Origin: Mobula hypostoma
Lineage: Eukaryota
NCBI RefSeq assembly: GCF_963921235.1
Contig: NC_086097.1
Span: 19,098,001 to 19,162,000, forward strand
Direction of reading: 5' to 3'
Length of the DNA stretch: 64,000 nt
The position numbers were made by a program, and so were the translations under genes. How positions within the stretch are numbered: position 1 is the stretch's first letter; every line of letters starts with the position of its first letter. The notes below the pieces were generated by a model. That model was given only the letters and a program-made list of their open reading frames with translations. It ran no database searches and was not told where the DNA came from. This document shows, piece by piece, positions 1 through 59,928 of the stretch.

Positions 1-579
1 CTGTTTAATACCATCTCCGACCTCACTACTACTGTTAGGTGGCCTGTACACAACTCCCACCAGCGTCTTCTGCCTCTTAGTGTTACGCAGCTCTACCCAT
101 ATCGATTCCACATCTTCCCGGCTTATGTCCTTCCTTTCTATTGCGTTAATCTCTTTTTTAACCAGCAACGCCACCCCACCTCCCCTTCCTTCATGTCTAT
201 CCCTCCTGAATATTGAATATCCCTGAACGTTGAGCTCCCATCCCTGGTCACCCTGGAGCCATGTCTCTGTGATCCCAACTATATCATAATCATTAATAAC
301 AATCTGCACTTTCAATTCATCCACCTTATTACGAATGCTCCTTGCATTGACACATAAAGCCTTCAGGCGTTCTTTTACAACTCTCTTAGCCCTTTTTAAT
401 GCTTGCCCTGGATTTGTCGGCCTGCCACTTTTACTTTTCCCCTTTGTACTTTTTGCTTCTACGCTCACTTTACACCCCTCTGTCTCTCTGCACTGGTTCC
501 CATCCCTCTGTTGTGAACTAACCTCCTCACACCTAGCCACTTTAATTTGATTCCCACCCCCCAACCATTCTAGTTTAAA
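1..579 (-). CDS. CR1 ORF2p N-terminus (linker plus APE-like endonuclease), partial, no in-frame AUG
   Basis: Manual translation gives 193 open codons: FKLEWLGGG...LKALCVNARSIRNKVDEL...DIVGITETWL...FRRDR...GGGVALLV...VESIWVEL...VGVVYRPPN. Absent from the ORF track because it runs off the edge. Confidence 0.9.
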
Positions 580-1263
580 GTCACCTCAGTAGCCCCCGCT
601 AATCTCCCTGCCAGGATATTGGTCCCCCTAGGATTTAAGTGTAACCCGTCCTTTTTGTACAGGTCACACCTGCGCCAAAAGAGGTCCCAATGATCCAAAA
701 ACTTGAATCCCTGCCCCCTGCTCCAATCCCTCAGCCACGCATTTATCCTCCACCTCATCGCATTCCTACTCTCACTGTCGCGTGGCACAGGCAGTAATCC
801 CGAGATTACTATCTTTGCGGTCCTTTTTCTCAACTCCCTTCCTAGCTCCCTATATTCTTCTTTCAGGACCTCATCCCTTTTCCTACCTATGTCATTGGTA
901 CCTATATGTACCAGGACCTCTGGCTCTTCACCCTCCCACTTCAGGATATCTTGGACACGATCAGAAATATCCCGGACCCTGGCACCAGGGAGGCAAACTA
1001 CCATCCGAGTCTCTGGACTGCGTCCACAGAATCGCCTATCTGACCCCCTTACTATCGAGTCCCCTATCACAACTGCCCTCCTCTTCCTTGCCCTACCCTT
1101 CTGAGCTACAGGGCCAGACTCTGTGCCGGAGGCAGGGCCACTGTCGCTCCCCCCGGGTAAGCTGTCCCCCCCAACAGTACTCAAACAGGAGTACCTGTTG
1201 TTAAGGGGCACAGCCGCCGGGGTACTCCCCATCACCTGCCTCTTCCCCTTCCCCCTCCTAACC
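570..1263 (-). CDS. CR1 ORF1p C-terminal SGNH/GDSL esterase domain (5' part missing)
   Basis: Motifs VPLNNRY, VVIGDSIVRG, CLPGARVRD, VHIGTND, ISGLLP, DGLHLN; stop TAG at 570-572. The first ~60 aa of track ORF 570..1439 come from the antisense strand of a neighbouring element. Confidence 0.9.
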
Positions 1264-1265
1264 GG

Positions 1266-2230
1266 AGCCATGAGAAGGCTTTGGCAGGCAGGATTAAGGA
1301 AAACCCCAAGGCATTCTACAAGTACGTGAAGAGCAAGAGGATAAGACATGAAAGAATAGGACCTATGAAGTGTGACAGTGGGAAAGTGTATATGGACCGG
1401 AGGAAATAGCAGGGCTGAGAAGTGGCAGATGGAGTTCAATCCAGATAAGTGTGAGGTGGTTCATTTTGGTAGGTCAAATATGATGGCAGAATTTAGTATT
1501 AATGGTAAGACTCTTGGCAGTGTGGAGGATCAGAGGGATCTTGGGGTCCGAGTCCATAGGACGCTCAAAGCGGCTGCTCAGGTTGACTCTGTGGTTAAGA
1601 AAGCATACGGTGTATCAGCCTTCATCAATCGTGGAATTGAATTTAGGAGCTGAGAGGTAATGTTGCAGCTATATAGGACCCTGGTCAGACCACACTTGGA
1701 GTACTGTGCTCAGTTCTGGTCACCTCACTACAGGAAGGATGTGGAAGCCATAGAAAGCATGGAGGAGATTTACAAGTATGTTACCTGGATTGGGGAGCAT
1801 GCCTTATGAAAACAAGCTGAGTGAACTTGGCCTTTTCTCCATGGAGCGACAGAGGATGAGAGGTGACCTGATAGAGGTGTATAAGATGATGAGAGGCATT
1901 GATCGTGTGGGTAGTCAGAGGCTTTTTCCCAGGGCTGAAATGGCTGCCACAAGAGGGCACAGGTTTAAGGTGCTTGGGAGCAGGTACAGAGGAGATGTCA
2001 GGGGTAAGTTTTTTACGCAGAGAGTGGTGAGTGCATGGAATGGGCTGCCGGCAACGGTGGTGGAGGCAAATATGATAGGGTCTTTTAAGAGACTTTTGGA
2101 TAGGTACATGGAGCTTAGAAAAATAGAGGGCTATGGGTAAGCCTAGTAATTTCTAAGGTAGGGACATGTTTGGCACAATTTTGTGGGCCGAAGGGCCTGT
2201 ATTGTGCTGTCGATTTTCTATGTTTTTATG
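1266..2230 (+). mobile_element. CR1 LINE 3' portion with internal deletion of the RT core
   Basis: HEKALAGRIKENPKAFYKYVKSKR joined at ~1411 directly to AEKWQMEFNPDKC...RDLGV...LVRPHLEYC...RGDLIEVYK; 3' UTR ends in a TTTCTATG-like tail. Confidence 0.92.
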
Positions 2231-13155: not shown

Positions 13156-14776
13156 TAGTGGCGTATCTAAGATATGGCAGGTATGGCACGTGGCCTGGGT
13201 GCCACTTGAAAGGGGCGCTACTGATCAGTTTCTGTTAAAGTCAGACAAGTCATCCTCAGATAGTGAAAAAAGAATATTCTTCAGATGTATGATCTGTCTT
13301 TGATTATCGTGGATGAGAAGCACTAGGATGGCCTTATTTCAGAGAATTTTGTAAGAAGACCATGAAACGTTTCTTCACGAAGAAGGAAAGTGGAGCCGAA
13401 GGACGGAAGAGACGAAAGTTGGAGGCGGAGGAAGCCAAGAAGTCGAGCAGGTTCTTCATGCCCTTCTTTGAAAAGCCCGGAACAAGTAGTTCAACATGTT
13501 CCATGGAGTCACCTGCACCAGCTACAACTTTGTTAGAATCCGAAGGTGGATCAAGTACAAATGCGTCACAAGCCGAGGGGGAAGTCAAGTCAGATAAATC
13601 CGAGTATGACGAGATTAAGAGTGAGGCTGCCACAGAGAACGCGGACATGACAGGAGGGGAAGACAATAGAGGTGGTGGTGATGTTGAGTTTATTGACAAG
13701 ATTGAACCTGACAACACTGAACCTAGTGAACTGGATGGTGTCAAAGAGCCTCGAGCTATCATACCAGAAGTGAATGAACAGCATGACATTGGACTTCTGA
13801 AGTTCGACAAGGATACTGGAAAAGCAATTCTGCCTGATGCATTGAGAACAGAAATAATAAAGCTGGGTTTGAAGTAGTTCCAGAACAGTGAGGGGCCTTT
13901 CCTACCAACAAATAACCGCTCAATGAACAAAACTTGGTTCAAGAGGAAATTGGGAAATGGTCGTGGTGAGGAAGTGACTCGCTCATGGCTGGTCTATTCC
14001 CCTTCTAAAAAGTCTGCCTTTCTTTTTGTATCTGTTGTCTTCTCCATTCCGGGTCAGACCATCAATCCTCATTGGAGCAGGAAAATGGATTCAACCAGTG
14101 GAAAGCACCTGAAAGGATTAGTGTTCATGAAAGTGCCAAGAATCATCGGAAATGCTTCACACAGTAGAAAGAAATGGAAAGAAATTTATCTGGAAACAGA
14201 GGAGTTACTGGCGCGGTATTTCAGTCACAGATTGAGAAGGAAAAGCAGAAGTAGCATGAAATCTTGACGAGAATCCTTCACTGCATAAAATTCCTTGTGA
14301 CTCAGAACCTGGCTTTGTGAGGACACAGGGAGTCACTTCAGCTAGACGATGACTTCAATGTGGGAAATTTCCTTGGCTTACTGAAACTACTGGCCATCTT
14401 TGACCCTGTCATAAAAGAACACCTCACTCATTTGGAAAGTCATCCTGGATCCATGTCTTATCTTTCACCGGGTGTCCAGAACGAATTCATCCACATGATG
14501 GCATCCACTGTTCGCCAGAGTTTATTGAGAAGCATTTGTAAAGCCAAGTACTGTGATCTCATTTTCGACTCGACTCCTGATCAGGCACACGGTGAGCAGA
14601 TGTCAGAAGTAGTGAGGTGTGTGGAAGTTGATTTTGAGAGGAAAACAGTCCATATTAGAGAGTGTTAGAGAGCTGATATTATGGTAAAGTTATCTAAAAG
14701 ATGGGTGTCAGATGTTTGGACAGCGGCGCAATTTCAGTGCTTGCCATAGGCGCTATTTTCCGTATATACGCCCCTG
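13156..14776 (+). mobile_element. hAT DNA transposon, internally deleted, both ends present
   Basis: Perfect 8-bp TSD CCCTCCAC (13148-13155, 14777-14784); imperfect TIRs TAGTGGCGTATCTA vs CAGGGGCGTATATA (11/14). Confidence 0.95.
13362..14665 (+). pseudogene. hAT transposase pseudogene (ZMYM1-like / DUF4371-type N-terminal half)
   Basis: RSWLVYSPSKKSAF, GNFLGLLKLLAIFDP, YLSPGVQNEFI, IFDSTPD...EQMSEVVR across ORFs 13362..13877, 13923..14267, 14360..14668; stops, a frameshift, and C-terminal half missing. Confidence 0.88.
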
Positions 14777-40275: not shown

Positions 40276-43200
40276 CATAAGACCTTAAGATATAGGAGCA
40301 AAATTAGACTATTTGGCCCATCAAGTCTGTTCCACCATTTCATCATGGCTGATCCAATTTTCCTCTCAGCCCCAGTCTCCTGATTTCTCCCTGTATCCTA
40401 TCCTTTCATGCCATGACCAATCAAGAATCCATCAACCTCTGTCATAAATATACATAAAGACTTGACCTCCACAGCTGCCTGTGGCAAAGAGTTCCACAGA
40501 TTCACCACTCTCTGGCTAGAGAAATTTCTCCCCATCTCTGTTCTAAAAGGATGGCTCTGTATTCTGAGGCTGTGTCCTCTGGTCTTAGACTCTCCCATCA
40601 TAGGAAATATCCTCTCTACATCCACTCTATCAAGGCCTTTCACCACTCGATAGGTTTCAATGAGGTCACTCCTCATTCTTCCGAATTCTAGTGAAATCAA
40701 GCACAGAGCCATCAGACTCTCCTCATATGACAAGCCCTTCAATCCTGAAATCATTTTCGTGAACCTCCTTTGAACCTCTCCAGTTTCAGCACATCCTTTC
40801 CAAGATAACGGGCTCAAACCTGCTCACAGTACTCCAAGTAGGCTTCACCAGTGCTTTATAAAGTGTCAACTTTACACCCAGGCTTTTGTATTCTAGTCCT
40901 CCTGAAATGAATGCTAACACCACAGACTCAACCTGCAAGTTAACCTTTAGGGAACCAGCCCAAGTCCCTTGGTACCTCGATATTTTTGTGTTTTCTCTCC
41001 AATTAGAAAATAGTCAACCCTTTCATTTCTTCTACCGAAGTGTATGACCATACACTTCCTGACACTGTATTCGACCTTTCATTTCTTTGCCCATTCCCCT
41101 AATCTATCTGTCCTTCTGTAGACTCTCTACTTCCTCACAACTACTTCTTGCCCCTCCACCTATTTTGGTATTGCCTGCAAACTTTGCAACAAAGCCATTG
41201 ATTCCATCATCCAAATCATTGACATATAACATAAAAAGAATTGGACCCAACACAGACCCCTGTGGAAAACCACTAGGCACCAGCAGCCAACCAGAAAAAG
41301 CTCCCTTTATTCCCACTCTTTGCCTCCTACCAGTCAGCCACTGCTTTATCCATGCTAGAATCTTTCTTGTAATACCATGAGCTTGTAGCTTGTCATGTAG
41401 CCTCATGTGTGGCACCTTGTTAAAGGCCTTCTGAAAATCCAAGTACACAACATTAACTGATTCTTCTTTGGCTATCCTGCTTGTTATTTCTTCAAAGAAT
41501 TCCAACAGATTTATCAAGCAAGAGTTTCCCTTGAAGAAACCATGCTGACCAAGGCTTACTTTATCATGTGCCTCCTGAGACCTCATCTTTACTAATTGTC
41601 TCCAACATCTTACCAACCACTGAGAAGTGGATTGATATTTGCAATTTTCTAGTCTTCTAGAACCGTTCCAGAATCTAGTGATTCTTGAAAGATCATTACT
41701 AATGTCTCCACAATCTCTTCAGCCACCTCTTTCAGAAGGTCCATCTGGTCCAAGTGACTTATCTACCTTCAGACCTTTCAGTTTCCCAAGAACCTCTCTC
41801 TCTTAATGGTAACTGTACTCATTTCATGACCCCTGACACCTGGAACTTACACCTCTAGTGTCTTCCACAATGAAGACTGATGCAAAATACTTATTCAGTT
41901 TGTGCGCTGTTTCATTGTCACCAATTACAACCTCTCTCTCCAGCATCCTTTTCCTCTCACTTCTCATTTACACTTTATGTATCTGAAGAAAGTTTTGGTA
42001 TCCACTTTAATATCATGGCCAGCTTACTGTCGTATCCCATCTTTACCTTCTTAATGACTCTTTAGTTGCCTTCTGTTGGCTTTTAAAAGCTTCCTAATTT
42101 TCTAACTTCCCACTAATCTTTGTTTTATTATTTGCCCTCTCTTTGGCTTTTATGTTGGTTTTGACTTCTCTTGTTAGCCATGGTTGTGTTATCTTTCCTT
42201 TCGAATACTTCTTCCTCTTTGGGATGTATATATCCTGTGCCTTCCAAATTGCTTCCAGAAATTCCAGCCATTGCTGCTCTGCTATCATCCCTGCCAGTGT
42301 TCTTTGCCAATCAATTCTAGCCAACTCTTCTCTCATGTCTCTGTAATTCCCTTCACTCCACTATAATATTGATACATCTAACTTTAGCTTCTCCTTCTCA
42401 AATTTCAGGGTGTATTCGATCATATTATGATCACCTGTATCTAAGGGTTCTTTTTCCTTAAGCTCACTTATCATTTCTGGTTCATTACACAACGCCCAAT
42501 CCAGAATAGCCGATCCTCTAGTGGGCTCAACCATCAGCTACTCTAAAAAGCCATCTTGTAACCACTCTAGAAACTCCCTCTCCTGTAATCCAGCTCCAGC
42601 CTGGTTTTCCCAATCTACCTGAATATTGAAGTACCCCATGATTATTGTAACATTGTCCTTTTGGCATGCATTTTCTATCTCCCATTGTAATTTGTGTGCA
42701 ACATCCTTACTACTGATTTGGGATTTGTACTCCACTCCCATCAGGGTTTTTTTACACTTGCTCCATCCACAATGGTTCAACACCTTCCAACTCCCTGTCA
42801 TCTCTTTCTAATGATTTGATTTAATTTGTTACCAACAGAGCAACACCGACCCATTTGCCTTCCTGCTGATCCTTTTGGTACAATATGTACCTTTGGACAT
42901 TAAGCTCTGAGCTACAATCTTTCAGCCATGACTCAGTGATGCCTACAACATCATACCTGCCAATCTGCAACTGTGCTGCAAGTTCATCTACCTTATTCTG
43001 AATACTGCGCATATTCATATACAACACCTTCAGTCCTTTATTCACCCATTTCAATGTTATCACACCATGCTCAACATTTTGATTCCTATCTTTGTCTGAA
43101 CTCTTACCAACATCTATCTCCACAACCTCTCTATGAAGCGTTCTGGCGCTCTGGTTCCTATCCCCCTGCAACTCTAGTTTAAACCCCACCCTGCAGCATT

Positions 43201-43677
43201 AACAAACCTTCCTGCTAGGATATTATTTCCCCCTCCAGTTTAGGTGCAAACCGTCCTTTCTGTACAGGTCCCACCTTCCCTGGAGAAGAGACCAATGATC
43301 CAAAAATCTTACCTTCCTCCTACACCTCCCTAGTTCTAACCATGTGGCATGGGTAGCAATCCTGAGATCACAGCCCTGGAGGTCCTGCCCTTTCACTTAG
43401 CATCTAACTCCCTGAACTCCCTATGCAGAACCTCATCACCCGTCCTCTCCCTGTCATTGACACCTACATGGACCATGACTTCTGGTTGTTCACCCTCCCA
43501 CTTTAGAATGTTGAGGACTCGATCCAAGTTATCCCGGACCCTGGCACCCAGGAGGCAATATACCATCTGGGAATCTCATCCTCACCAACAGAACCTCCTG
43601 TCCGTTCCTTTAACTAATGAATCCCCAATCACCACAGCGTGCCTCTTTTGCCCCCTTCCCGTCTGTGTCACAGAGGG
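40276..43677 (-). mobile_element. Long decayed CR1 LINE: ORF1 esterase remnant, endonuclease, RT, 3' UTR
   Basis: ORFs 42821..43189 (NKVDEL, DVVGITESWL), 42538..42801, 42094..42336, 41104..41616 (VYLDFQKAF, PQGSVLGP), 40398..40817; many frameshifts. Confidence 0.95.
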
Positions 43678-44109: not shown

Positions 44110-45155
44110 AAGAGATTAGCTTAATTTGTCACGAGTACATTGAAACATATGCTATCATTGTGTCATCATTTGTGATGCGCTCAGGATAACCGGCAAGTGT
44201 TAACGTGCTACTGCACCAATATACTAACCCTAACCAGTGCGTCTTTCTTTGGAATGTGAAAGGAAACTGGTGCTCCCAGAGGAAACACACGCAGTCACGG
44301 GGAGAATGTATAAACACACGCAGTCACGGGGAGAACATATAAACACACGCAGTCACGGGGAGAACATATAAACACACGCAGTCACAGGGAGAACGTATAA
44401 ACACACGCAGTCACGGGGAGAACGTATAAACACACGCAGTCACAGGGAGAACGTATAAACACACGCAGTCACGGGGAGAACGTATAAACTCCTTACAGAC
44501 ACAGTCACAGGGAGAACGTATAAACACACGCAGTCACGGGGAGAACGTATAAACACACGCAGTCACAGGGAGAACATATAAACACACGCAGTCACGGGGA
44601 GAACGTATAAACACACGCAGTCACGGGGAGAACGTATAAACTCCTTACTGACGCAGTCACGGGGAGAACTTATAAACTCCTTACACACGCAATCACGGGG
44701 AGAACGTATAAACACCTTACAGATGCAGTCACAGGGAGAATGTATAAACTCCTTACGCAGTCACGGGGGAACGTATAAACTCCTTTTACACGCAGTCACG
44801 GGGAGAACATATAAACTCCTTACAGACGCAGTCACAGGGAGAACGTACAAACACCTTACACACGCAGTCATGGGGAGAACGTACAAACTCCTTACACACG
44901 CAGTCACAGGGAAAACGTATATCCTCCTTACACATGCAGTCATGGGGAGAACGTATAAACTCCTTACACACGCAGTCACAGGGAGAACGTATATCCTCCT
45001 TACACACGCAGTCACGGGGAGAACGTATATCCTCCTTACACATGCAGTCACGGGGAGAACGTATAAACTCCTTACAGATGGCGGCAGGAATTGAACATGG
45101 ACCTTCTGATCACTTGCAAGGTAATAGTATATTGCTAACCACTCTGCTACCACAT
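44110..45155 (-). mobile_element. V-SINE-type SINE containing an internal tandem expansion
   Basis: Flanks ggaaactggtgctcccagaggaaac (core) and ctccttacagatggcggcaggaattgaac...gctaaccactctgctacc (head). Confidence 0.85.
44283..45077. repeat. Minisatellite, ~24 units of 29 bp and 36 bp
   Basis: AAACACACGCAGTCACGGGGAGAACGTAT (29 bp, left half) and AAACTCCTTACACACGCAGTCACGGGGAGAACGTAT (36 bp, right half). Confidence 0.97.
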
Positions 45156-46944
45156 CAGTAAAAATACTGCCTCACAGTATAGGATTTTACTGCCACACTA
45201 CAGAACACATCCTATCTGGGTGCATCACAACTTGTTGTACCATCTGGTCTGTCCAAGCCTGCAAGAAATTGCAGAGAGTTGTGAATGCAACCCAATCCAT
45301 CACAGAAACCAAACTTCCTTCCATTGACTACACTTTTTACCGCCACCAGAAAGCACCCAGTGTAATCGAGGACTTTCTCCTATCCCAATCATTCCCTCTT
45401 CTATCCTCTCCCCTCTGCATGTCTTAGGAAGATGGGTTGTGCATGCCAGGGCATTTCCCTTTAGAGCAAAGGTGGATGAGAGGTGACCTGATAGAGGAGA
45501 ACAAGTTGATAAGAGGAATGGATTGAGTGGACAAAGACTTGTTCCCAGGGCAGAAATGGGTAATACAAGGGGGCATAATTTTAAGGTGATTGGAGGAAAG
45601 TATAGGGGGATGTCAGAGGTAAGTTCTTTCCACAGAGAGTGTTGAGTGCATGGAGTGCCCAGCCAGGGGTAATGGTAGAGGCAAGTACATCAGCGGTACG
45701 TAAGAAACTCTTAAAGAGGCACGTAGATGATAATAAATGGAGAATTGTGTAAGAGGGAAGGGTTAGATTGATCTCAGAGTTGGTTACAAGGTTGACACAT
45801 CATGGGCCGTACCGTGCTGTGAGATCTATGTTCTCCAGTGGGACAGAAGATGCAAAAGTTGAGAATGCCAGTCACCAGACTGAAGGGCAGCTTCTATCCC
45901 ATTGTTATCAGTCCTTAGAACAGACATCTTGTAAGATAAATGATGAACTCCTGAACTCTTAATCTCCCAATCCACCTTGTTGTGGCCTTTGAACTTTATT
46001 TGTTTACTGGCACTCCACGTACTCTGTCATGGCAACACTGTATTCTGCTTTCTGTTTTCTTTTCACTCCCTCAGTGAATCTCTCATGGCAGAATCTGCCT
46101 TGATGGCACAAGAAGCAGAAGCTTTTCAGTCTATCTCAGTACGTGTGACAATAATAAACCAATATCAGTACCAGTACTGATCATCTAAAAACTTGGCATG
46201 TTTATAGGAGGTACGTCACATAGGGAATTCATTGCGGCAGAAAGCTGTGGAGGCCAAGTTATTCAGCACACTTAATGCAGAGCTTGATAGGTTCTTGATT
46301 AGCAAGGATGTCAAAGGTTACGGGGTGAAGGTAGGAGAATGTGGTTGAGAGGGATAATAAATCATATATGTACTTTGATAATAAAATTGACTTTGAACTT
46401 TGAAGTCAGCCATGATGGAATGGCGGAGCAGACCCAATGGGCCTATTTCTGCTCCTGTCTTATGGTCTTCCAAAAGAAGAACATCTTCATGACTCATAAC
46501 GAATTGATCAGTTCTTTTTTCGCAAGTTGGGTGTTTGATGTTGCCTTTAAACGGGTCCCATGGGGTTTCTTTGTTTTGTGGCTGCCTGTGGGAGGACAAA
46601 TCTCAGGGTTGTGTACTGTATATTCTACATACTTTCATAAGAGATGTACCTTGAATCTTTGAACCTTAGAAGCAATTCGGCTACAGTCTGTATCTACCCA
46701 GTTAAGCACCTGCTTTGTTCATTTGTCTTTGTGATCAACTAACACAGCCTACAAAATATCTGCAATCTTATTCTATTTATCAGGTTGAGAAGATCTCAAC
46801 CCACTCAGCCAAAGCCAGTTGTGATGCTGAGGTTGGCATGCTCACATTTTAGATGAGAATGTGAGTTCAAGTCCCACTGTCGAGCTTCAGCTCAAAATCT
46901 AAGACACTCACTCCATGCAGGATGAAGGGGATGCTGCCCAATTT

Positions 46945-55577: not shown

Positions 55578-58500
55578 GGGTAATTATAGACCAGTGAGCC
55601 TTATGTCTGTGGTGGGAAAGCTGTTGGAAAAGATTCTTAGAGATAGGATCCCTGGGCATGTAGAGAATCATGGTCTGATCAGGGACAGTCAGCATGGCTT
55701 TGTGAAGGGCAGATCGTGTCTAACAAGCCTGATAAGGGTTCTTTGAGCAGTAGACCAGGCACATAGATGAGGATAGTGCAGTGGATGTGAACTATATGGA
55801 TTTTAGTAAGGCATTTGACAAGGTTCCACATGGTAGGCTTATTCAGAAAGTCAGAAGGCATGGGAACCAGGGAAGTTTGGCCAGGTGGATTCAGAATTGG
55901 CTTGCCTGCAGTTGTGGTGGAGGGAGTACATTCAGATTGGAGGATTGTGACTAGTGGTGTCCCACAAGGATCTGTTCTGGGATCTCTACTTTTCGTGATT
56001 TTAATTAACGACCTGGATGTGGGGGTAGAAGGGTGGGTTGGCAAGTTTGCAGATGACACAAAGGTTGGTGGTGTTGTAGATATGTAGAGGATTGTCAAAG
56101 ATTGCAGAGAGACATTGATAGGATGCAGAAGTAGGCTGAGAAGTGGCAGCTGGAGTTCAACCCGAAGAAGTGTGAGGTGATACACTTTGGAAGGACAAAC
56201 TCCAAGGCAGAGTACAAAGTAAATGGCAGGATACTTGGTAGTGTGGAGGAGCAGAGGGATCTCGGGGTACATGTCCACAGATCCCTGAAAGTTGCCTCAC
56301 AGGTAGATAGGGTAGTTAAGAAAGCTTATGGGGTGTTAGCTTTCATAAGTCAAGGGATAGAGTTTAAGAGTCGCGATGTAATGATGCAGCTCTATAAAAC
56401 TCTGGTTAGGCCACACTTGGAGTACTGTGTCCAGTTCTGGTCGCCTCACTATAGGAAGGATGTGGAAGCATTGGAAGAGGTACAGAGGAGATTTATCAGG
56501 ATGCTACCTGGTTTAGAGAGTATGCATTATGATCAGAGATTAAGGGAGCTAGGGATTTACTCTTTGGAGAGAAGGAGGATGAGAGGAGACACAAAAAGTG
56601 GTAAGGTGAAAAGTAAAAGTGGCAGGCCAGCAAATCCAGGGCAAAAATCAAAATGGGCCACTTTTCAACATAATCGTATAAGGGCTAAGAGTGTTGTAAA
56701 AGCAAGCCTGAAGGCTTTGTCTGTCAATGCAAGGAGCATTCGTAACAAGGTGGATGAATTAAAAGTGCAGATTGTTATTAATGAATATGATATAGTTGGG
56801 ATCACAGAGACATGGCTCCAGGGTAAACAAGGATGGAAGCTCAACATTCAGGGATATTCAATATTCAGGAGGGATAGACATGAAAGAAAAGGAGGTGGGG
56901 AGCATTGCTGGTTAGAGTGGAGATTAATGCAATAGAAAGGAAGGACATTAGCTGGGAGGACGTGGAATCGATATGGGTAGAGCTGCATAACACCAAGGGG
57001 CAGAAAACGCTGGTGGGAGTTGTGTACAGGCCACCTAACAGTAGTAGTGAGGTTGGGGATGGCATTAAACAGGAAATTAGAAATGCATGCAATAAAGGAA
57101 CAGCAGTTATAATGGGTGACTTCAATCTACATATAGATTGGGTGAACCAAATTGGTAAGGGTGCTGAGGAAGAGGATTTCTTGGAATGTATGTGGGATGG
57201 TTTTCTGAACCAACATGTCGAGGAACCAACTAGAGAGCAGGCCATTCTAGACTGGGTTTTGAGCAATGAGGAAGGGTTAATTAGCAATCTTGTCGTGAGA
57301 GGCCCCTTGGGTAAGGGTGACCATAACATGGTGGAATTCTTCATTAAGATGGAGAGTGACATAGTTAATTCAGAAACAAAGGTTCTGAACTTAAAGAAGG
57401 GTAACTTTGAAGGTATGAGACGTGAATTAGCTAAGATGACTGGCAAATGATACTTAAAGGGTTGACGGTGGATATGCAATGGCAAGCATTTAAAGATCGC
57501 ATGGATGAAATACAACAATTGTTCATCCTAGTTTGGCAAAAGAATAAACCAGGGAAGGAAGTGCACCCGTGGCTGACAAGGGAAATTAAGGATAGTATCA
57601 ATTCCAGAGAAGAAACATACAAATTAACCAGAAAAAGCGGCTCACCTGAGGACTGGGAGAAATTCAGAGTCCAGCAGAGGAGGACAAAGGGCTTAATTAA
57701 GAAAGGGGAAAAGGTTATGAGAGAAAATTGGCAGGGAACATAAAAACTGACTGTAAAAGCTTTTATAGATATGTGAAAAGAAAAAGATTGGCTAAGACAA
57801 ATGTAGGTCCCTTACAATCAGAAACATGTGAATTGATCATGGGGAGCAAGGACATGGCAGACCAATTGAATAACTACTTTGGTTCTGTCTTCACTAAGGA
57901 GGACATAATTAATCTTCTGGAAATAGTAGGGGACCGAGGGGCTAGTGAGATGGAGGAACTGAGGGAAATACATGTTAGTGGGGAAGTAGTGTTAGGTAAA
58001 TTGAAGGGCAGATAAATCCTCAGGGTCAGTTGGTCTGCATCCCAGAGTGCTTAAGGAAGTAGCCCAAGAAATAGTCGATGCATTAGTGATAATTTCTCAA
58101 AACTCTTTAGATTCTGGACTAGTTCCTGAGGATTGGAGGGCAGTAACCCTGCTTTTTAAAAAAGGAGGAAGAGAGAAACCAGGGGATTATAGACCCGTTA
58201 GCCTAACATCGGTGGTGGGGAAAATGCTAGAGTCAGTTATCAAAAATGTGATAACAGCACATTTGGAAAGTGGTGAAATCATCGGACAATGTCAGCATGG
58301 ATGTGCGAAAAGAAAATCATGTCTGACGAATCTCATAGAACTTTTTGAGGATGTACCTAGTAGAGTGGATAGGGGAGAACCGGTGGATGTGGTATATTTG
58401 GATTTTCAAAAGGCTTTTGACAAGGTCCCTCACAGGAGATTAGTGTGCAAACTTAAAGCACACTGTATTGGGGGTATGGTATTGATGTGGATAGAGAATT

Positions 58501-59928
58501 GGTTGGCAGACAGGAAGCAAAGAGTGGGAATAAACGGGACCTTTTCAGAATGGCAGGCAGTGACTAGTGGGGTACCACAAGGCTCAGTGCTGGGACCCCA
58601 GTTGTTTACAATATATATTAATGACTTAGACGAGGGAATTAAATGCAGCATCTCCAAGTTAGCGGATGACATGAAGCTGGGCGGCAGTGTTAGCTGTGAG
58701 GAGGATGCTAAGAGGATGCAGGGTGACTTGGATAGGTTAGGTGAGTGGGCGAATTCATGGTAGATGAAATTTAATGTGGATAAATGTGAGGTTATCCACT
58801 TTGGTGGCAAAAACAGGAAAACAGATTATTATCTGAATGGTGGCCAATCAGGAAAAGGGGAGGTGCAACGAGACCTGGGTATCATTGTACACCAGTCATT
58901 GAAAGTGGGCATGCAGGTACAGCAGGCGGTGAAAAAGGTGAATGGTATGCTGGTATTCATAGCAAGAGGATTCAAGTACAGGAGCAGGGAGGTACTACTG
59001 CAGTTGTACAAGGCCTTGGTGAGACCACACCTGGAGTATTGTGTGCAGTTCTGGTCCCCTAATCTGAGGAAAGACATTCTTGCTATAGAGGGAGTACAAA
59101 GAAGATTCACCAGATTAATTCCTGGGATGGCAGGACTTTCATATGATGAAAGACTGGATCGACTAGGTTTATACTCGCTGGAATTTAGAGGATTGAGGGG
59201 GGATCTTATTGAAACGTATAAAATCCTAAAGGGATTGGACAGGCTAGATGCAGGAAGATTGTTCCCGATGTTGGGGAAGTCCAGTACAAGGGGTCACAGT
59301 TTAAGGATAAAGCGGAAGCCTTTTAGGACCGAGATGAGGAAAAACTTCTTCACACGGAGAGTGGTGAATCTGTGGAATTCTCTGCCACAGGAAACAGTTG
59401 AGTCCAGTTCATTGGCTATATTTAAGTGGGAGTTAGATATGACCCTTGTGGCTAAAGGGATCGGGGGTATGGAGAGAAGGCAGGTACAGGGTTCTGAGTT
59501 GGATGATCAGCCATGATCATACTGAATGGCGGTGCAGGCTCGAAGGGCCAAATGGCCTACTCCTGCACCTAATTTCTATGTTCCTGTGTTTCTATGATAG
59601 AGGTATACAAGATATTAAGGGGAATAGATAGAGTGGATAGCCAGCGCCTCTTCCCCAGGGCACCACTGCTCAGTACAAGAGGACATGGCTTTAAGGTAAG
59701 GGGTGGGAAGTTCAAGGGGGATATTAGAGGAAGGTTTTTACTTGGTGCATGGAATGCACTGCCTGAGTCAATGGTGGAGGCAGATACTCTAGTGAAATTT
59801 AAGAGACTGCTGGACAGGTATATGAAGGAATTTAAGATGGGGGGTCATATGGGAGGCAGGGTTTAAGGGTCGGCACAACATTGTGGGCCAAAGGGCCTGT
59901 ACTGTGCTGTACTATTCTTTGTTCTATT
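55578..59928 (+). mobile_element. Outer CR1 (same subfamily as 7432-9146), split at 56590/59594
   Basis: ...RRRMRGD| at 56590 resumes as |MIEVYKILRGIDRVDSQ at 59594, as in the uninterrupted copy at 8820-8880. Confidence 0.95.
56591..59596 (+). mobile_element. Inner CR1: nearly full-length ORF2 (EN+RT) and 3' UTR, disabled
   Basis: [60 protein letters not shown] over ORFs 56177-59516; several frameshifts and a TAG at 58761; TTTCTATG tail. Confidence 0.96.

Follow-up and report, generated by a model that had tools for sequence, protein, structure and literature searches.

How is ORF2 of a CR1 retrotransposon translated when its reading frame opens just ahead of the ORF1 stop and offers no AUG before the endonuclease? 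The question is raised by a truncated element (copy A) at the left edge of the 64,000-nt stretch of Mobula hypostoma DNA analyzed here (the window), vertebrate DNA rich in repeats. In birds, reptiles, and cartilaginous fishes CR1 is the predominant LINE, and invertebrates carry relatives of it. The window elements probably belong to this clade, judging from their domain order, their resemblance to proteins of birds, lizards, and sharks, and motifs that we take to be CR1 motifs.

The Copy A Junction and Related Copies in the Window

The minus strand at the copy A junction reads ...GTG ACT TTA AAC TAG AATGGTT GGGGGG TGGG, placing the heptamer U_UUA_AAC in the X XXY YYZ phase of ORF1, just as the original prediction had read it (Table 1). 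Also confirmed was the claim that the −1 frame opens only at 585, after a TGA, and continues for 193 codons without an AUG; 193 is the count from the heptamer, and 195 codons run from 585 to the window end with neither a stop nor a Met. Because this TGA closes the −1 frame, ORF2 has no possible start at an upstream AUG. An AUG 1 nt past the stop (568–566) was rejected as an ORF2 start, as it lies in the +1 frame, which closes after 8 codons. The G-rich run that had been noted past the ORF1 stop corresponds to GGTTGGGGGGTGGG at 566–553.

Upstream of the junction, the ORF1 remnant encodes an SGNH esterase (PF13472, E 1e-16; PDB 4C1B, E 2e-42, alignment A2) that is 98% identical to residues 82–311 of its nearest protein, a 311-aa protein of Mobula hypostoma. 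Residues 1–81, comprising the zinc-finger/coil part and the start codon, are missing from copy A, which is 5′-truncated at ~1262; N-terminal CxxC pairs are found in the 98% identical P0001 and its relatives, in the region that copy A lacks. Because of this truncation, our claim is about the family and not about expression of copy A itself, which preserves the family's signal but is no active gene.

Table 1. Positions of CR1 features in the window, counted from its first letter.
Feature	Position	Strand	Remarks
ORF2 APE endonuclease start (copy A)	1..363	−	PF03372; Asn of NARS at 348–346; continues past window edge
−1-frame linker (copy A)	349..579	−	77 codons, neither stop nor Met in copy A; 468 = GTG
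G run, G6 (copy A)	557..562	−	conserved core G5 = 562–558; candidate linear 3′ stimulator
7-nt spacer, stop to G run (copy A)	563..569	−	sequence varies, length fixed; 10 nt from heptamer to G run
ORF1 stop UAG (copy A)	570..572	−	adjoins heptamer; UAA/UGA in some bird-like families
Slippery heptamer U_UUA_AAC (copy A)	573..579	−	X XXY YYZ phase of ORF1; exact in 33/38 junctions
ORF1 remnant, C-terminal part (copy A)	573..1262	−	CR1 type-IV ORF1 (SGNH esterase); PF13472/PF00657
TGA closing −1 frame upstream (copy A)	586..588	−	bounds ORF2 frame
Inverted CR1 ORF2 fragments	1260..2113	+	adjoin truncated 5′ end of copy A
Copy C junction	43162..43183	−	second, diverged CR1 subfamily; TTTAAAC 43183–43177, TAG 43176–43174, 7-nt spacer, GGGGG 43166–43162
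Copy C ORF1 esterase remnant	43177..43674	−	interrupted by stops and indels
Copy B, sister of copy A	56580..59516	+	85% identical over linker/endonuclease part; broken endonuclease–reverse transcriptase ORF2

Copy C shares 66% identity with copy A over ORF1, and its −1 frame reaches the endonuclease unbroken through a linker 21 codons shorter than that of copy A. In copy B, both the endonuclease (EN) and the reverse transcriptase (RT) were detected in ORF2. Its first in-frame Met does lie in MGDFN at 57112, as had been noted for the sister copy, and says little about initiation since copy B begins mid-linker (56580), lacks the junction, and carries a frameshift near 56895. At 56135–56600 (+) one CR1 ORF2 contributes its 3′ part, which is fused in frame to the copy B linker in a chimeric or nested insertion. 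Elsewhere in the window, a ~36-bp tandem repeat at 44582–45171 leaves frames open on both strands, and reading frames at 13317–14668 (+) resemble what we take to be a decayed hAT-type DNA transposase.

The 10-mer formed by the heptamer and TAG is not rare by itself, with 3 window matches at ≤1 mismatch vs. 5.3 expected. Both exact matches, however, fall at ORF1 stops (570–579 and 43174–43183), and in-phase XXXYYYZ heptamers occupy 3 of 1638 other ORF1 codons. What exceeds chance is the place and phase of the motif at ORF1 stops.

Conservation of the Junction Across Hosts

Further junctions were retrieved with an esterase alignment, using search patterns that exclude the ORF1 C-terminus. Among the 67 loci obtained, 36 span the junction and, together with copies A and C, make up the set of 38 analyzed here; the 31 excluded loci comprise five resembling bacterial GDSL hydrolases, 25 ending short of the junction, and L020, whose match breaks early. 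L068–L096, mostly repeats of L052–L065, were left uncounted. The loci from outside the window represent animal host DNA inside microbial assemblies, being sturgeon-like (96% protein identity), bird-like (≤72% to a stork protein), or invertebrate (56–70% to Lamellibrachia proteins). Three bacterial MAGs, G001 (L052–L065), G002, and G003, contain animal CR1 retrotransposons, and G001 must be heavily host-contaminated because its 17.8 Mb hold 28 esterase matches. P0019, a protein carrying the label Pseudomonas aeruginosa, is a CR1 ORF1 too. No relative was found among the viral contigs searched.

Across ray, sturgeon-like, bird-like, and invertebrate junctions, an exact TTTAAAC is present in 33 of 38, and a stop (TAG, TAA, or TGA) comes next in 30 of 38. 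The five junctions without an exact heptamer are single decayed copies from families that also hold intact members. We then compared 20 representatives, one per distinguishable lineage, omitting 18 near-duplicates or decayed copies. None of the 20 representatives, which were chosen among heptamer carriers and share ancestry, departs from the eight bases TTTAAACT; the 24 bases 5′ of them are conserved in at most 15 of 20, and stop identity and flanks vary. The ORF1 DNA tree of these representatives spans ~7 substitutions per site (hand sum of the printed tree). The signal is far wider than the window copy, and the CR1 ORF1/ORF2 junction carries a deeply conserved cis element. One decayed, distant esterase LINE (L098:1124–4506, on G001:C886) has no TTTAAAC; its ORF1 contains ...GHYFRQ..., and its −1-frame ORF2 overlaps the ORF1 tail. 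It was considered as an AUG-type control and dropped as a decayed copy with overlapping frames.

The original prediction had proposed that the Leu-Asn codons should not vary freely, and they do not: the ORF1 end is T-TTA-AAC in 20 of 20 lineage representatives, vs. a background in 13 of their ORF1s of 28 TTA among 199 Leu codons and 35 AAC among 71 Asn codons. At our control site, the Leu of the conserved CLPG motif, five codons occur across 12 lineages. Judging from these counts, the heptamer is kept beyond amino-acid need and synonymous freedom is unused. Population variants were compared in four sequencing runs (X1, X5, X13, and X9) over positions 330–830, leaving out runs X19–X23 with small word shares. 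Among 40 listed of 109 variants, TTA codons at 600, 636, and 642 (≤65 nt upstream) change and none fall within 553–579, which lends weak support to constraint at the junction.

Protein ends extend this pattern. Among 194 complete ORF1 homologs (those reaching the last helix), 137 end in LN and bear names of rays, sharks, sturgeon, an amphibian, and a lizard; as the other 57 end otherwise, not every esterase LINE carries the signal. A DGxH motif lies close to the C-terminus in 188 of 283 proteins; 120 of these end in LN, and in 119 of the 120 LN is preceded by a residue that has a codon ending in U. A second class ends in xGN, where all 25 x residues (22 Gln, the rest Lys, Ala, or Ser) have a codon ending in G. 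Gln codons cannot end in U, and the QGN end is compatible, at the protein level only, with G_GGA_AAC. The QGN class forms a crab-like group, including two proteins named from a crab. The LN/GN pattern fits a switch from U_UUA_AAC to G_GGA_AAC, which may have been a single event. DNA of the QGN class was not found in viral contigs, in G001–G003, or in 401 genomes of the order of G001. Other esterase ORF1 groups (P0200, P0219, P0254, P0305, and P0202) end in SKN or in xFFR/xFFH; SKN would fit A_AAA_AAC and QGFFR would fit G_GGU_UUU, which suggests further heptamer classes.

Beyond the stop, GGGGG follows the heptamer after a gap of exactly 10 nt in 33 of 36 junctions with sufficient sequence, against a background start rate for five Gs of 0.3% of positions. 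The G run covers third codon positions and is therefore a nucleotide signal, possibly a linear 3′ stimulator of a shift. This fixed G run stands in place of the stimulatory RNA structure sought downstream, for which the folding analysis gave no support: in 18 lineages the 80 nt past the junction fold no better than shuffles (z −1.5 to +1.3, pseudoknot-free folding), and in folding and duplex scans of these lineages G5 is mostly unpaired or variously paired, with no shared long-range partner. Duplex and fold matches near the CLPG codons were rejected as they show no nucleotide-level conservation, and the 18 lineages have just 1–3 GGG tracts per 40 nt, which makes a G-quadruplex an improbable stimulator in general. 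A weaker A-x-A lies 9 nt past the G5 core (window 548–546, minus strand; +31/+33 from the heptamer start), with one A conserved in 16 of 18 lineages and the other in 17 of 18; this could be an extension of the motif or a sign of A-rich sequence.

Proposed Route to ORF2 and Its Rivals

From the observed sequence, phase, frame, and nucleotide-level conservation of the junction we infer a ribosomal slip, a fusion protein, and a part for the G run. The comparative tests support the original prediction that CR1 may make an ORF1–ORF2 fusion by −1 frameshifting, and we put the probability that the junction of esterase-type CR1 directs programmed −1 frameshifting into an esterase-EN-RT fusion at roughly three in four. 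In the proposed mechanism, a cassette of ~22 nt (U_UUA_AAC, stop, 7 nt, GGGGG) would let the majority of ribosomes terminate at the codon after the heptamer, yielding ORF1p with a Leu-Asn end. A minority would slip one base back on UUA/AAC, re-pair to UUU/AAA, and so bypass the stop, possibly aided by the linear G motif. Slipped ribosomes would then read a variable basic linker followed by endonuclease and reverse transcriptase, and the fusion would be made at a low fixed ratio, with ORF1p in large excess over enzyme as in Gag-Pol.

A more specific version of this frameshifting model is tentative, and we think it somewhat doubtful as a whole: a Gag-Pol-like CR1 fusion whose −1 shift would be driven by a linear five-G motif bound by a trans factor, and not by RNA structure, in a cassette common to protostomes and deuterostomes and subject to a U_UUA_AAC/G_GGA_AAC swap. 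The putative G5-binding factor could be a host G-run-binding protein or ORF1p itself, the latter permitting feedback control.

Reading of the frames is consistent with a shift. ORF2 lies in the −1 frame from the heptamer wherever the linker is intact, over linkers of 35–90 codons, and stop readthrough was rejected as a route, since it would require an ORF2 in frame 0. Copy A, L001, L003, L004, L052, L059, and L062 all lack a Met ahead of the first endonuclease Asn, a set that comprises ray copy A, the sturgeon-like lineage, and both invertebrate lineages; in L004, 821 codons are open from the heptamer across EN and RT. Long database proteins joining esterase, EN, and RT were rejected as natural fusions: P0324 (YLK-LVGQGG across the junction) is a single-member cluster and likeliest reflects a one-base indel, and P0322 and P0323 have the domain order reversed.

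The lack of an AUG alone need not imply a frameshift, because L1 ORF2 is thought to initiate independently of AUG (available text of PMC5009743). For the same reason the chief rival remains an L1-like, AUG-independent termination-reinitiation, in which terminating ribosomes, held at the ORF1 stop by the G run and the conserved bases, would restart nearby in the −1 frame. Such a restart could use the −1-frame codon across the stop, which is CUA or CUG in intact copies, and it accords with the stop lying directly after the motif in 30 of 38 junctions and with the lack of an RNA fold of the frameshift type. It does not, however, predict the exact in-phase X XXY YYZ or the heptamer-keeping xLN/xGN pattern, and the stop is not consistently followed by a near-cognate codon (TGG, AGG, TCG, GAC, GAA, and GGG occur there). 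We consider reinitiation of this kind unlikely.

AUGs within the linker offer another way into ORF2. The original prediction had treated an in-frame AUG ahead of the endonuclease as evidence against a shift; copy A has none, but position 468, GTG in copy A, is ATG in many related copies, and several bird-like families carry an AUG by the stop. The 468 variant supplies an in-frame AUG in ~24%, 95%, 49%, and 1% of the contig depth in X1, X5, X13, and X9, respectively, contig depth being a poor measure of such shares. Bird-like L002, L005, L007, L011, and L047 have an in-frame AUG 2 nt past the stop, L035 has one overlapping the stop (UAAUG, one of 20 representatives), and L012 and copy C have a Met later in the linker. 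Reinitiation or leaky scanning at family-specific AUGs, with the heptamer as a relic or minor route, would account for the AUG at −1-frame codon 4 or 5 in six bird-like loci and for the 468 variant in the kin of copy A, and UAAUG is used by SART1 (available portion of PMC3894237). Yet a SART1-like conserved AUG or UAAUG is absent as a general junction feature among the 20 representatives and from copy A, the Met-less lineages listed above have no such start, linker and stop AUGs occupy non-homologous positions in different lineages, and they coexist with an intact heptamer. A Met somewhere in a 35–90-codon linker is presumably expected by chance. We judge this explanation improbable as the general route; frameshift and AUG routes could run in parallel.

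Slightly less probable again is that the motif acts outside translation, as an RNA or DNA element for RNP assembly, for processing, or for splicing of an ORF2 message, and overlaps the ORF1 stop by happenstance. G runs are binding targets of hnRNP H/F-type proteins, and the weaker A-x-A past G5 might belong to such an element. Against it stand the exact codon phase and the fixed relation to the −1 frame; splicing in particular is disfavored by an AG that is not kept (TAA and TGA variants), by the lack of a preceding pyrimidine tract, and by the 15 listed of the 42 joints in run X9 (RNA by guess), none of which falls at the site. Hardest to sustain, and already largely refuted by the codon counts, is a protein-level motif (ORF1p C-terminal Leu-Asn plus ORF2 N-terminal Gly-Gly, with codons fixed by descent), which agrees with the 137 LN-ending homologs but not with synonymous sites that are invariant whereas control codons vary, third positions within the G run, an esterase match to 4C1B that stops at profile position 306 of 310, or the replacement of LN by QGN in one clade.

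Relation to Known Systems and Significance

The CR1 junction has its heptamer and phase in common with −1 frameshifting of the coronavirus/retrovirus type (U_UUA_AAC, G_GGA_AAC), which likewise joins an upstream structural or RNA-binding ORF to a downstream −1-frame polymerase ORF. CR1 differs in having no pseudoknot or hairpin 5–9 nt downstream, in the stop that adjoins the heptamer, and in being a LINE, not a virus or LTR element. U_UUA_AAC and G_GGA_AAC are among the most shift-prone heptamers in mammalian ribosomes, and some stimulators work without mRNA structure, perhaps through rRNA pairing (available sections of PMC5009743). According to the same sections, linear trans-activated stimulators lie 11–15 nt 3′ of shift sites, those at 12–15 nt tending toward trans factors, and the PRRSV nsp2 shift depends on a protein-bound CCCANCUCC (PCBP/nsp1beta) 11 nt 3′ of its shift site. 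PRRSV as described there and CR1 share an unstructured, short, homopolymer-rich motif ~10–11 nt 3′ of the shift site, which is putative in CR1; unlike PRRSV, CR1 has G5 as its motif and U_UUA_AAC as its heptamer, and the analogy is tentative.

Frameshifting in a LINE has precedent, because a figure legend in PMC5911963 states that ORF2 of Dictyostelium TRE5-A and TRE3-A requires a −1 frameshift. These are APE-type LINEs like CR1, but of another clade and ORF1 type, and the available text names neither a slippery site nor a stimulator for them. L1 and SART1, like CR1, are bicistronic LINE RNAs with low ORF2 output, and make a separate ORF2p from an AUG (UAAUG in SART1; dispensable in L1) according to the accessible text of PMC3894237, PMC5381506, and PMC5009743; unlike them, CR1 has an in-phase heptamer at the junction and several lineages without an AUG. 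The LINE ORF2 routes named in these portions are reinitiation, IRES, and 2A skipping, with no CR1 frameshift among them, and the part of PMC5009743 available treats HeT-A, TART, and L1 and does not mention CR1.

CR1 with a type IVB ORF1 (zinc finger/leucine zipper plus esterase; CR1_7 in the available text of PMC4120745) likewise has an SGNH esterase and an ORF2 with APE and RT, and N-terminal CxxC pairs like those of P0001 and its relatives. That text calls the esterase groups exclusively vertebrate, and the word "frameshift" does not occur in it. In contrast, the annelid-like and crab relatives found here share the esterase, and the annelid-like ones also the junction DNA; invertebrate esterase-type ORF1s are represented by L003, L004, L052, and L059 (annelid-like) and by P0303 and P0308 (crab). 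We found no report of a CR1 frameshift in the literature within reach of our search, beyond which lie older subscription papers and supplements, nor in the accessible parts of PMC11835228, PMC4255032, PMC4120745, PMC2734521, PMC5381506, and PMC5006619. The fixed offset of the G run goes beyond the original prediction.

If the frameshift is real, the working CR1 enzyme would be an esterase-EN-RT fusion, ORF2 annotations that begin at the first Met would be too short, and retrotransposition assays of CR1 would have to preserve the junction. A structure-free G5 stimulator, if borne out, would be a rare parallel in cellular genomes to the protein-stimulated frameshifting of arteriviruses.
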